DNA of 64,000 nt from a virus. The translations under genes and the position numbers were made by a program. Below the pieces are notes generated by a model. It was given only the letters and a program-made list of their open reading frames with translations. It did not search any database and was not told where the DNA came from. The stretch is taken from IMG/VR virus record IMGVR_UViG_3300031857_022279; one strand, given 5' to 3'. Positions 1,310 through 50,542 of this stretch are shown one piece after another. The number at the start of each line of letters is the position of its first letter. Positions within the stretch are counted from its first letter, which is position 1.

Positions 1310-2775
1310 TTACTTCATTCCGGAAAATATATCTAAAACCACACTAAGTCTTTTTGTAATCTCAGGAAGACCAAGTGGATCTATAATAGAATTAATTGGA
1401 GATAAAATTGACTTCATAAACTGCTCGTCATAATCAATTTCTGGTGCAAATTCTATAGGATAGGAACCCCTAATAAAAGCAAACATATCATTTGTCTTTT
1501 TATTCTTACAATAATAGTATTTGATCTTAGTTCCTGACTTAATGAATTCGTACTTTGATTGTAATAACTTATTCTGATTTAAAAGATAGTTATGATAAGC
1601 TGCAGATTTAACAGCAAAGTGGGCACCACTAACAAATTCCAATCTATCTTTATCTTCTAAAACTTTGGTTTCATAATTAGAACAAGATGACTGCATCGAA
1701 ATATCATCGATATCTGCAAGTTCAAATTCTTTTCTAAGATTTTTAACTAATTTTAGTAGGTCTTTGATATTAAAGTCATCTGGATGGGCAAAAAGATATT
1801 TTACAATTTCAACAATCTTTTCACGGGCAAATGCCGGTGTAGAAGAACGAACAAGCTCAACACCTTTAGGAAAGATATAAGTTAGTCTATCATAAGGAAT
1901 ACCATCTTCATATACAATATGCTGAATGTACTTCTTTTTTGCTATATTAATAATTGATTCTGATATCCTTTCTAACTCAAAATCTTCTCTGTTTTTTACT
2001 CCATAACTACCAGCATATTCATCAAGACATTTTTTGAAATAATCTCCATACCTAAGTGCGTCTATACCATGTATGAAATCTAATTCATTATCCCAATTCC
2101 ACTGTATTTCTATATCCTTAATTAAATCCTGAATATCTTTTGAATTAAATGACCGGTCTTTAACAAAATACCCATCGATAATAATTAATTCCGGATTAGT
2201 ATTAGTTATAAAATCTTTAAAATCATTTACGTTCTTAAAGTGACCAATACAATTACTATTAGTAATTTTAGATTCTTGTCTTTTTTCTAGAAATACAAAC
2301 CTCTGATTTAAAGAATTCATCTTTGACAGTGGAAGATTCCTCCATTCACAATGTTGAATTGCTGGTTCAAAAGATACAAATAATGAATCCGTATCTGCAT
2401 AGATTGATACTTCATCACCGTCTTTTTTGGATAAAGAAGTGACATTCTTCACTCCAAGTTTAGAATGTAGTTCAAAATCTAGATGCCATTGTTCATACCA
2501 ATACTTTTCATTTACAGCATTCATAGTTTTAGTCAAGTCTCTGCCTTGCGCTGTTATAGTACCGGCGACGTGTTGATTAAACAGTATGAAATATTGCGTA
2601 GCAAATGCTCCGTAACTTCCATTTAATATTAATTTTAAAGCATTTTCCCCTCTGTCAAAAAACAGAGGGGTTATCGAGCCAACTGAAGAGCGTTGTAATA
2701 ATCAGATTCTCTCTTCAGTTGGTTGGCTTTAATTTTTAGTGACTCGATTTTTTTTAATTTATCTTCTCTCGTCAT
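1310..2775 (-). CDS. gp43: Family B DNA polymerase, C-terminal half (fingers/palm/thumb), interrupted by a 38-nt coding gap at 2676-2639
   Basis: Motif C YADTDSLF, IAKKKY and KGVELVRSSTP are in ORF 1310..2536. That frame extends upstream without ATG/GTG/TTG through ALKLILNGSYGAF (motif B). The upstream ORF 2775..2671 ends YNALQLA-R-stop. Joining at the GCT/GCT pair restores QLALKLILNGSYG. Confidence 0.9.
2639..2679 (-). other. Candidate programmed translational bypass element (take-off GCT 2679-2677, CGA TAA, hairpin 2670-2647, landing GCT 2641-2639)
   Basis: Minus strand reads GCT CGA TAA CCCCTCTGT TTTTTG ACAGAGGGG AAAAT GCT TTA AAA. Confidence 0.7.
2671..2775 (-). CDS. 34-codon upstream ORF encoding the N-terminal segment of the polymerase subunit
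   Basis: Hand translation MTREDKLKKIESLKIKANQLKRESDYYNALQLAR*; below the ORF-track length cutoff. Confidence 0.85.
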   Translation of the reverse strand: MTREDKLKKIESLKIKANQLKRESDYYNALQLAR

Positions 2776-2860
2776 TTAATTTTTTATATTTTTTTTAAAT
2801 AATTTCCAAAGAAACTTATTGAAAAGTTATAGTGTTAAAAACAAGTTAGTTTAATAACTT

Positions 2861-3634
2861 TTAATCCTCCACACTAAAATCCTGTTCAAATGAAATCATA
2901 AGGTGACTCTCTTCGTCTTTCGTTAAAATAAAAGTTTCAAAAACGAAAAAGTGTACATGGTCACCACTATCATTGATAGAAGGTAGAAAAGTTTTGTTAA
3001 ACATTAGATGTCTATCAGTAACATCTACTTTGTCTACTTCAAATTCCCACGTTGATGTTTCAGAAAGAATAACCTTTTGACTATCTACGTTAAGATGAAC
3101 TACTTTACCGTCTGAGTTTATAGAGCAAAGTTTTTTAATATCTTGGAATTCACTACTTTCAACTTTAAAAGACCATTTAGACAATTTTGTATCGACTCTT
3201 TTAGATAAAACCGCTTTTGTTATATCTCTTATTTCTGAATTTTCACCACCTTGTATTGCAATTTTTAACTTACCATTTTTAATTTGTAAAAATCTTGCTA
3301 GAGATTGATCATCATCAGTTCTGTAATCAACAGTGACTGCAATTTTTTCAGATTTCTTTATAAATTGTAGATTCTTAACAAATTTCTTAGACCCTGAAAT
3401 TATTATATCAATAGTTTCATCAATATCCTCTTTAGTAGTTAAGTATTCGTTGGTATTAATGATGTAGCTTTTAAAGGCCAGTAGAATAGTTTCACCAACA
3501 ATAGAATACATTAAAATATTTTCTGAATCTATTTTTAACTTTAAGGTGTCACTTATTTTTGACAAATCTTCGAGCTTGTGAAGAAAATCTTCAAATTTAT
3601 CTCCGTTGATCGTGAAGTTAAGTTTCTTTGTCAT
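2861..3634 (-). CDS. Probable sliding clamp (gp45/PCNA-like)
   Basis: 257 aa with an alternating alpha/beta two-domain pattern; directly upstream of the polymerase gene on the same strand; no diagnostic motif confirmed. Confidence 0.5.
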   Translation of the reverse strand: MTKKLNFTINGDKFEDFLHKLEDLSKISDTLKLKIDSENILMYSIVGETILLAFKSYIINTNEYLTTKEDIDETIDIIISGSKKFVKNLQFIKKSEKIAVTVDYRTDDDQSLARFLQIKNGKLKIAIQGGENSEIRDITKAVLSKRVDTKLSKWSFKVESSEFQDIKKLCSINSDGKVVHLNVDSQKVILSETSTWEFEVDKVDVTDRHLMFNKTFLPSINDSGDHVHFFVFETFILTKDEESHLMISFEQDFSVED

Positions 3635-48847: not shown

Positions 48848-50542
48848 ATGTTTATGAATTTAGATATTTTTAGAAACCCGGATCCATCGGGAAAACTGTA
48901 CAAAGAATCTTTTTTATATAAAAATTTTCCAGAAGAATATAATTTTATTGTTTCATATTGTGATATCAATAAAATAGTAGATATTAGTTTTAAGGAAAAA
49001 GTTTATCTCGTTTTAAATGAATTGAAGTCAATACCAGCTTGTAAAAATTCAAATTGTAATAATAGAGTTAAATTTAAAAATTCAACGATTGGGTACTTGA
49101 AATATTGCTCGAAGAAGTGTGTTTCGGACGACCCAAATATAAAGAAGATCAAAGAAGAGAAATCAATATCTAAATGGGGTACAAAATCTCCTGCTCAGTC
49201 ACAAGAGATAAAAGATAAAATCATAAAAACTAATCAAGAGAAATATGGTCATAATTCACCTATGAATTTAAAATCAATTCAAGATAAATCAATGCAAACT
49301 TTAATCAAAAATTGGGGAGTTGAAAATCCAAGTAATTCTAGTGAGTTATTGCAAAAAAGAATTGAATCTTTTAAATCAAGTTCATTTAAAGATACTTTTA
49401 AATTAACATCATTAAAGAGATATGGAGTTGAACATCCATGGAGAAATAAAGAGATTCACTCAAAAACGATTTCTCATTTCTATGATGATTATGTTGTTAG
49501 AATAAATAGTAAAATAAACACTAATGAGTTTGTTTTTTTAGGTTTTGAAAAATCGATATCTACACATCTACTATTTAAATGTTGTAAGTGTGATCGGAAT
49601 TTTAAAATATTAACATACCAATTCTATTATAGAATTAATTCTGGTCTTAGTATTTGTACTAACTGCTTTCCTATTTCTGAAAATTCTTCAATATCACAGA
49701 TCGAGGTTTATAATTTTATCAAAGAAAATTACGCCGGTGAGATACTAGTTGATGATAGATCTTCGATAAAACCTTACGAGATAGATATATTTCTTCCATC
49801 ACTAAACATTGGATTCGAATTCAATGGATTATGGTGGCACTCATCTAAATATAAAAATGAGAACTATCACTTGGTTAAAAGAGAGGTTGCAAGTTCTAAT
49901 AATATAAAACTTTTAACTATATGGGAAGATGATTGGACTATCAAACGAGAGATTTGCAAATCATTTATTCTTAATAAGCTTAATAAATCAACAAAAATTC
50001 CAGCAAGAAAATGTGAGATTATAGAAATAGATTATAGTTCCTCAAAGGCCTTTTTAAACGAAAATCACTTTCAAGGTGATTGTAAATCTTCTATTAGAAT
50101 TGGTTTATTTTATCAAGGAATTTTGGTATCTCTAATGACATTTTCAAAATTAAGACTACCATTAGGAGGTAGACACAGAGAAGGAGTCTATGAATTAACT
50201 AGATTTTGTAATAAAATTTTTACTACTGTTGTTGGTGGTTCTTCTAGGTTGTTAAGTTACTTTTTAAAAAAGTATGATCCATTGTCTATTGAAACCTATT
50301 CTGATAATATGATTTCAGACGGTAATATGTATGATAAATTAGGATTTTCATATCAACACACATCATCACCGAGTTATTGGTATGTAATTGATCAAAAAAG
50401 AGAAAATCGTTTTAATTGGAGAAAATCAAGATTGAAAAAAATTGGTGGTGATATGGATAAGACCGAGCAACAAATTATGGAGGAATGGGGATTTTATAGA
50501 GTTTATAATGCTGGTAATAAAAAATGGATATTGACAAAATAA
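48848..50542 (+). mobile_element. Free-standing Hef-like homing endonuclease gene
   Basis: Zn motif CKNSNC...YCSKKC, KYG/KWG-x-x-P repeats, CCKC...CTNC, EIDIFLP...GFEFNGLWWHS nuclease motif, C-terminal ELTRFC/YSD domain. Confidence 0.7.

Follow-up and report, generated by a model that had tools for sequence, protein, structure and literature searches.

To our knowledge, gene 60 of phage T4 has been for decades almost the only model of long-range ribosome bypassing, and the 5' stem-loop of this bypass was reportedly studied by Samatova and colleagues in 2014. Bonocora and colleagues are said to have described, in 2011, the T4 cassette that unites the MobA homing endonuclease with the gene 60 bypass, and Lang and colleagues, in 2014, the mitochondrial bypass elements ('byps') of Magnusiomyces capitatus.

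We have analysed a 64-kb stretch of DNA of a giant freshwater phage (64,000 nucleotides, hereafter the window), in which the gene encoding the C-terminal half of a DNA polymerase is interrupted in a way that recalls gene 60. In both, the coding sequence is broken by a gap with a stop codon and a hairpin, flanked by matched take-off and landing codons, and a further hairpin lies upstream of the take-off codon, where it is impossible with the ribosome in place and would form on mRNA exit. The two differ, however, in several respects. The 3' arm of the polymerase stem abuts or overlaps the take-off codon, whereas the gene 60 stem lies 9 nt upstream of it (Wills, Parsawar and Atkins, 10.1101/2024.12.09.627546); the stop codon is immediately adjacent to the take-off codon in gene 60 (10.1101/2024.12.09.627546), whereas a CGA codon stands between them in the window. 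Unlike that of gene 60, the polymerase stem, of 8–15 bp with a loop of at least 20 nt, is conserved with covariation, and host gene, phage group and sequence are all different. Homologues of gene 60 are reported not to conserve the 5' stem-loop (10.1101/2022.08.31.505936), so that the analogy with gene 60 rests on a feature of debated importance; exit-side pairing by this stem-loop has been proposed as the initiating driver of the bypass (10.1101/2024.12.09.627546).

The closest system overall is the MobA/gene 60 cassette of T4 (Manning and Atkins, 10.1101/2022.08.31.505936). In both systems, an HNH-type nuclease gene sits beside a split essential gene, the downstream part of which has a short leader and an untranslatable gap; the cassette is distributed patchily over the tree of the host gene, and some lineages, the window among them, have the gap with no nuclease gene beside it ('hit and run'). 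The target is nevertheless motif B of a family B DNA polymerase here and a topoisomerase there, with at least four sites within 27 nt here; the gap hairpin starts 4–6 nt after the take-off codon in most alleles here, whereas it contains the take-off codon there; and the nuclease is here divergent, of the DUF7487 / phrog_3339 type. We treat the polymerase cassette, set apart by its host gene and its nuclease family, as a probable analogue, not a member, of the T4 gene 60/MobA element.

Two other systems share features with this locus. Like the byps, the polymerase inserts are short, G+C-rich hairpins placed in A+T-rich coding sequence between matching take-off and landing codons, and apparently have to be jumped; unlike the byps, which occur in many genes of one genome, a single such hairpin is found in the 64-kb window, and the element is associated with one gene and with a homing endonuclease. 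A stable hairpin about 5–6 nt after the P-site codon, with its base at the mRNA entrance, is also known from the stimulatory hairpins of -1 frameshifting, but the polymerase locus has no slippery heptamer and its insert lengths fall in every class modulo 3. A full-text literature search found no papers on bypassing in huge-phage polymerases.

A stem directly precedes the insert. This stem exists, covaries, and is specific for inserts at the site used in the window (site 1, below); the other insertion sites have equivalent stems, and stem and insert are inherited together. On the strength of these sequence comparisons, we consider it probable that the stem is a selected mRNA structure of a mobile, gene 60-like bypass cassette, which would refold behind the sliding ribosome.

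The split polymerase gene and its stem

The downstream frame of the locus encodes the C-terminal half of a family B DNA polymerase of the T4 type (PF00136; phrog_262 positions 509-839), the motif B of which (KxxxNSxYG), aligning with residues 557-609 of PDB 1S5J, is split by the insert. In two huge phages from GenBank (634 and 642 kb), the same gene is one 474-codon frame reading ...YYNALQLALKLVLNGSYG, and this sequence in a single frame is the state of the uninterrupted homologues. As the huge-phage homologues run through in one frame, the window has a 38-nt insert and a duplicated Ala codon. The insert contains a stop codon and a hairpin, and the 12-bp stem directly precedes it. The elements, all on the minus strand, are as follows, in the order of transcription:

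2677-2775, minus strand: leader of the polymerase C-terminal-half gene, from ATG 2775-2773 to the take-off GCT 2679-2677; 33 codons, ending ...YYNALQLA
2728-2734, minus strand: possible 5' strand of a closing helix, TTAAAGC, pairing with GCTTTAA 2641-2635 (landing codon plus 4 nt)
2711-2722, minus strand: 5' arm of the stem, CCAACTGAAGAG; codons Q-L-K-R
2691-2710, minus strand: loop of the stem, 20 nt, from sequence and fold
2679-2690, minus strand: 3' arm of the stem, CTCTTCAGTTGG; codons A-L-Q-L and the first base of the take-off GCT
2671-2676, minus strand: spacer CGA TAA, 6 nt; a rare Arg codon (5% of Arg codons), then the stop
2647-2670, minus strand: gap hairpin CCCCTCTGT / ACAGAGGGG, 10 bp in the fold; the sole G+C-rich hairpin of its type in the window
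2639-2641, minus strand: landing codon GCT, the same triplet as at take-off; TTA follows and resumes ...LKLILNGSYG
1310-2638, minus strand: resumed polymerase frame, from motif B onward, including the DTDS motif and the thumb; stop at 1312-1310

From ATG 2775, the leader encodes the 33-codon peptide MTREDKLKKIESLKIKANQLKRESDYYNALQLA up to GCT 2679-2677, followed by CGA and by TAA 2673-2671. Past the landing GCT 2641-2639, which five bases separate from the gap hairpin, the resumed frame reads LKLILNGSYGAF..., in a different frame from the leader, and ends at the stop at 1310. The leader peptide is basic and conserved, to an equal degree in uninterrupted alleles, and the comparison gives no nascent-peptide signal. 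The N-terminal half of the polymerase was found neither among the large reading frames scanned in the window nor directly upstream in the three relatives checked, and there are no tRNA genes in the 64-kb window. Upstream of the leader lies a 257-codon gene (2861-3634, minus strand) without Pfam or PHROG match, homologues of which are located upstream of the polymerase in interrupted and intact relatives alike.

Several simple ways of joining the two frames have been considered and rejected. Read-through, an alternative genetic code and a fixed or single frameshift are ruled out by insert lengths in all classes modulo 3 and by the stops in the gaps. Re-initiation is ruled out in the window, as no ATG, GTG or TTG is present in the downstream frame ahead of motif B, the first start-type codon in this frame being TTG 2536; a recurrent ATG ahead of the landing codon is out of frame in the alleles inspected.

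The initial annotation had reported a perfect 12-bp stem with a 20-nt loop at the end of the leader, and both its coordinates and its sequences are exact: on the minus strand, CCAACTGAAGAG pairs perfectly with CTCTTCAGTTGG over 12 bp inside the coding leader, and the take-off GCT codon begins with the final G of the 3' arm. An alternative register noted at the same time, AGCCAAC (2728-2722) with GTTGGCT (2683-2677), is present in the window but was not seen in the other alleles inspected; it is due to a CAAC repeat peculiar to the lineage of the window. Folding of 2775-2630 (minus strand), which had been suggested as a check, yields both the 12-bp stem, as the central helix of the minimum-energy fold, and the gap hairpin, with an RNAfold energy of -44.3 kcal/mol vs -21.6 +/- 3.3 for shuffled sequences (z = -6.9; 0 of 200 shuffles as good).

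The stem is exceptional in its own genomic context. Seven distinct perfect hairpins of at least 12 bp, with loops of 3–40 nt, are found in the 64-kb window; this one alone lies within a coding region and has the highest G+C content (6/12), the remaining six being intergenic or at gene ends, and terminator-like. When the amino acids of the leader are fixed and the codon usage of the window is applied, a stem of at least 12 bp arises in about 6 per 10,000 synonymous resamplings. Rare codons are used in the stem (CTG, 2% of Leu; GCC, 7% of Ala; TTG, 14% of Leu). Finally, an independent contig from an estuary sample covers 2564-3100 free of gaps, with 2 substitutions, none of them reported in 2635-2734. 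Insert and stem are therefore real DNA and no assembly artefact.

Stems and covariation among related loci

The comparison is based on 142 related loci, with 60 viral and 80 metagenomic loci fetched; 136 loci have both anchors, and among these 56 are uninterrupted and 80 carry inserts of 36–49 nt. The hairpin inserts occupy four sites within 27 nt:

Site 1 (the window's site): after QLA or QLAL
Site 2: after LKLV
Site 3: after LNG or LNGS
Site 4: after LNGSY

The nearest protein relatives of the window, L063 and L064 (88–89% identical), are uninterrupted and without the stem; L070 and L083 have the same insert site and the exact stem arms of the window. The window's allele recurs in several independent samples. 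One estuary sample (run X8; loose ends at 2611 and 2641) contains the window's allele together with a close strain carrying a site-4 insert and an uninterrupted strain; in the site-4 strain, the hairpin is read from a 30-letter loose end, then followed by ...TAA before GGA.

The leader is free of indels, and pairing was scored in a fixed codon register, with S-E-L-K (AGC GAG YTG AAR) opposite L-Q-L-A (CTY CAR CTY GCT). In every one of the 26 distinct site-1 alleles, a stem runs up to the take-off codon, a count that overstates independence because the site-1 leaders probably share one origin. It keeps the same codon register in 25 of them (8–15 contiguous bp), the remaining allele having a 7-bp helix shifted by 4 nt, and the median helix of the 26 alleles is 11 contiguous bp. 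Whether uninterrupted homologues keep the stem, the point on which the initial annotation had made its reading depend, is answered in the negative: all 44 distinct uninterrupted alleles are without it (0/44), with at most 6 contiguous bp and a median of 2.

The arm pairs of site-1 alleles differ from one allele to another (AGCGAGTTGCAA/TTGCAACTCGCT, AGCAGTTTGAA/TTCAAACTGCT, GAGCAAGCT/AGCTTGCTC, and CCAACTGAAGAG/CTCTTCAGTTGG in the window), and covariation among homologues, also proposed as a check, gives a strong signal on the 26 alleles. In their alignment, 85% of cells are paired vs 32–38% when the partner is slid, changes on both sides (compensatory) are found in 7 of 13 base pairs, and 0 of 500 shuffles are as high as the observed covariation, on all five measures used. 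The same structure imposed on 31 non-site-1 alleles only gives background pairing (36%). Seven contrasts between close relatives agree (L004/L003, L026/L001 with L029, L011-13/L014, L051/L050, L046/L036, L057/L055, and the window/L063-64). When read for strand bias, the site-1 stem alignment contains 14 G-U cells vs about 6 A-C mismatches, counts that do not clearly favour either strand.

These results bear on the possibility of a pseudogene in decay, with a stem that arose by chance from its coding sequence, as might be suspected from the broken frame and from a downstream part in which no start codon precedes motif B (first TTG at 2536). The compensatory covariation of the stem, its probability of about 6e-4 given the protein sequence, the same allele in several independent samples, and about 430 codons of downstream frame that dozens of diverged interrupted alleles keep open make this extremely improbable.

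Stems are not restricted to site 1. Full-length folds show that, in site-3 and site-4 alleles, the leader codons I-E-S-L-K (GAGTCATTAA and variants) pair with the codons L-N-G-S, and that these stems finish one base short of their own take-off codon; compensating variants are found here as well (AACTCCCTTAAG/CTTAACGGGAGTT and GAACTATTAAGG/CCTTAATGGTTC). In site-2 alleles, a GCTTCAGAGCT-like sequence pairs with the codons just ahead of the GTT take-off codon. A register-free score, namely the length of the longest helix that upstream sequence can form with the 15 nt preceding the take-off codon, was compared with that of uninterrupted alleles, with p-values that ignore the relatedness of alleles: the median is 11 vs 5 at site 1 (p = 2e-12), 8.5 vs 6 at site 2 (p = 0.04), 13 vs 7 at site 3 (p = 0.002) and 9 vs 7 at site 4 (p = 0.002). 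Fixed-window folding energies barely separate site-4 from intact alleles (-7.2 vs -5.0 kcal/mol); fixed windows are weak for site 4 because its stems span about 75 nt, and long-range analysis is needed. In most alleles with a continuous helix at sites 3 and 4, a wobble (T opposite G) occupies one conserved position, so that these helices are continuous only as sense-strand RNA.

Five alleles (L020, L039, L104, L136 and L142), representing only about two lineages, have no upstream stem above background and carry gap hairpins of 18–19 bp (-31 to -35 kcal/mol) that include the take-off codon, as does the hairpin of gene 60. This points to strong-hairpin and stem alleles being two alternative architectures of the same element. 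The trade-off is confined to these five extreme alleles, as stem length and gap-hairpin energy show no overall rank correlation (Spearman 0.13, p = 0.33).

In nine loci (L041, L043-L045, L049, L051 and L059-L061), the polymerase frame stops after about 183–192 further codons, with a common tail (...FRNG.K.E.KP.E...). This early end suggests a further split of the gene, perhaps intein-like or due to a second mobile element.

Putative take-off and landing, and the fold around the gap

Removal of the insert restores ...ALQLALKLVLNGSYGAFA, the motif B peptide, in every interrupted allele. The insert lengths of 36–49 nt nevertheless represent all three classes modulo 3; the near-identical alleles L041 and L043 differ by one base within the gap, and a +1 T gap variant is present at depth 2 in run X20 (labelled RNA-Seq, probably DNA). 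A look-up of sequencing runs lists no RNA source for this stretch. After the take-off codon, a stop follows a single sense codon in most alleles, as it does in the window with CGA and TAA, and a few have no nearby stop. The gap hairpin, made of a C-run and a G-run, has 9–12 bp and an energy of -17 to -24 kcal/mol in most alleles, and of -26 to -35 kcal/mol in a few. The spacer between take-off codon and hairpin measures 4–6 nt in 36 of 57 folded gaps, the base of the hairpin extending up to the take-off codon in the rest, and the distance from hairpin to landing codon ranges from 0 to 13 nt across folded alleles.

The take-off codon and the landing codon encode the same amino acid in 25 of 26 site-1 alleles, the exception being L070 (GCT to TCT), and in all site-2 and site-3 alleles, an ambiguous GGT pair being resolved. 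The codon pairs at sites 1–3 are CTT/CTA (18 alleles), GCT/GCT or GCT/GCA, GTT/GTA, TCT/TCA and GGT/GGT. At site 4, the take-off codon is Tyr (TAT or TAC; L009, L019-L022, L031, L038, L055, L066, L067, L073, L076, L079, L086-L088 and L141), and the triplet before the resumed GGA is TAA, TAG, AAC, AAA, GAC, CAA or AGC; a TAC landing triplet is present in only four site-4 alleles, the others being mostly near-cognate. Either landing at site 4 seems to need merely partial re-pairing, or something else sets it. This near-cognate landing is unpredicted by a simple re-pairing model and counts against the bypass reading.

The fold of the window brings in a third helix. Pairing of the possible closing strand (2734-2728) with the landing region would complete a three-way junction, and the take-off and landing codons come to lie where three helices meet, both in the fold of the window and in those of about half of the site-1 alleles. 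In relatives, the third helix is made by leader sequence and by the 5 nt before the landing codon with its first two bases, and compensating pairs are again observed (AGTCATT/AATGACT, AGTCTTT/AAAGACT, AGTCTCTAA/TTAGAGACT and AGTCTTTG/CAAAGACT; example loci L026, L041, L053, L056, L116 and L132). Pairing within an allele exceeds pairing across alleles (permutation p = 0.0015), the helix reaching at least 6 bp in only about half of the site-1 alleles.

A junction of this kind could also mark the cuts of a tiny intron-like element, formed by stem, gap hairpin and closing helix, the insert then being removed from the RNA before translation. Such a removal would account for the position of take-off and landing codons at the three-helix junction in these folds, and would have no need of the cognate landing codon that site-4 alleles often lack. 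The distance of 0 to 13 nt between hairpin and landing codon in the folds speaks, however, against a ruler-type enzyme, and the pairs that are synonymous and not identical (CTT/CTA in 18 alleles, GTT/GTA, TCT/TCA, GCT/GCA) point to selection for tRNA identity. Furthermore, no Rfam family comes near its threshold, a scan of 2400-3000 (E <= 1) giving weak chance matches only, the best at 20.5 bits vs a gathering score of 90. Inserts of 36–49 nt are also too small for known self-splicing introns, and we know of none that is not far larger. Removal at the RNA level is thus distinctly unlikely.

The mobile cassette and proposed refolding behind the ribosome

The bypass cassette that we favour appears to be mobile. 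An HNH homing endonuclease gene is found within 1.5 kb upstream in 29 of 44 interrupted alleles vs 0 of 32 intact ones. This gene, of 290–390 codons, is divergent and directly upstream of the interrupted polymerase gene; its product matches DUF7487 and the PHROG homing-endonuclease families phrog_3339 and phrog_12131, with an HNH-like C-terminus, and no solved structure related to it by sequence was found. The window has the insert and the stem, and no adjacent nuclease gene.

The window also encodes, not beside the polymerase gene, a 564-codon homing endonuclease (48848-50542, plus strand; phrog_3339 at 5e-114, HNH family phrog_559). This protein and the nuclease of the cassettes in relatives have repeated DNA-binding modules of the KYGV type in common (27–28% identity over about 100 residues).

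The insert state is scattered over the polymerase tree, site-1 status needing at least 8 changes on well-supported branches. The leader of the window is 82–86% identical to those of the site-1 alleles L070 and L083 vs 68–69% to those of its closest body relatives, L063 and L064. Over the first 300 body nucleotides, identity is 60–74% to site-1 relatives vs 78–79% to L063 and L064. As leader and body identities run opposite ways, leader sequence tracks the insert type and not the gene body. In runs X15 and X16, close strains have 245 nt (2615-2861; leader and insert) replaced by 201 other nt.

The initial annotation had taken the stem as a second, independent element supporting a functional bypass rather than a random insertion. 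The support is borne out by covariation and site specificity, but the independence is lost, since stem and insert are inherited together as one cassette. The stem is most likely part of a mobile cassette composed of a homing-endonuclease gene (lost in the window), a re-coded leader and a hairpin insert.

This co-inheritance also raises the question of whether the stem, although selected and linked to the cassette, could have a role other than in bypassing, in transcript stability, ribosome spacing, DNA-level homing or protection from the endonuclease. Linkage alone explains the co-occurrence of stem and insert, which form one inherited tract beside a homing endonuclease gene, and the gene 60 homologues do not conserve their 5' stem-loop (10.1101/2022.08.31.505936). 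We nevertheless hold such a role to be unlikely. In each of four site classes the 3' arm reaches as far as the take-off codon, in a register that differs between the classes, which fits a role tied to take-off. As to a function at the DNA level, the site-3 and site-4 helices are continuous only as sense RNA in most alleles with a continuous helix, and loops of 20–75 nt make DNA cruciforms unlikely.

If the stem belongs to a bypass cassette, full polymerase would be made only when ribosomes hop from the take-off to the landing GCT: ribosomes carrying peptidyl-tRNA(Ala) would leave GCT 2679-2677, pass 35 nt and re-pair at GCT 2641-2639. When the P site is occupied by the take-off GCT, the 3' arm (-11 to +1, counted from the first take-off base) would lie within the ribosomal mRNA channel, with the stem melted, the 5' arm (32–43 nt upstream) would already be outside the ribosome, and the gap hairpin, starting at +10, would stand at the mRNA entrance. 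Because the 3' arm would lie in the channel at take-off, the stem could form only during mRNA exit; the earlier claim that it closes fully only once the ribosome has left the take-off GCT follows from this geometry. As the mRNA slides out, the 3' arm might zip onto the 5' arm, which would bias movement forward and block backward slippage. That a 5' stem-loop promotes forward sliding, as had been put forward along with this claim, goes no further here than an analogy with T4 gene 60, the stem itself being real and site-specific.

We lean slightly towards a wider proposal, also built on sequence comparison. The polymerase inserts would form a second natural family of long-range (36–49 nt) bypasses, independent of T4 gene 60, in which a refolding stem is required and re-created for each site, and in which the closing helix would give a three-way junction with take-off and landing codons side by side. 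Nature has provided dozens of variants with a covarying upstream stem that tracks the take-off codon across four sites and is absent in the five strong-hairpin alleles. Whether refolding drives bypassing is directly testable, because the stem sequences have already been varied by nature. If the proposal is true, these variants would be the first comparative evidence for mRNA refolding on the exit side as a driver of ribosome sliding. More generally, an essential polymerase motif of very large phages can be interrupted by selfish nuclease cassettes while function is apparently preserved, and such genes are easily mis-annotated as pseudogenes or split genes when genes are called in metagenomic phage genomes.

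Finally, one locus (L072, about 1870-2010) carries two inserts, at site 1 and at site 4 (78 nt in total), which are ten codons apart, together with the site-1 stem; a single polymerase would then require two hops.
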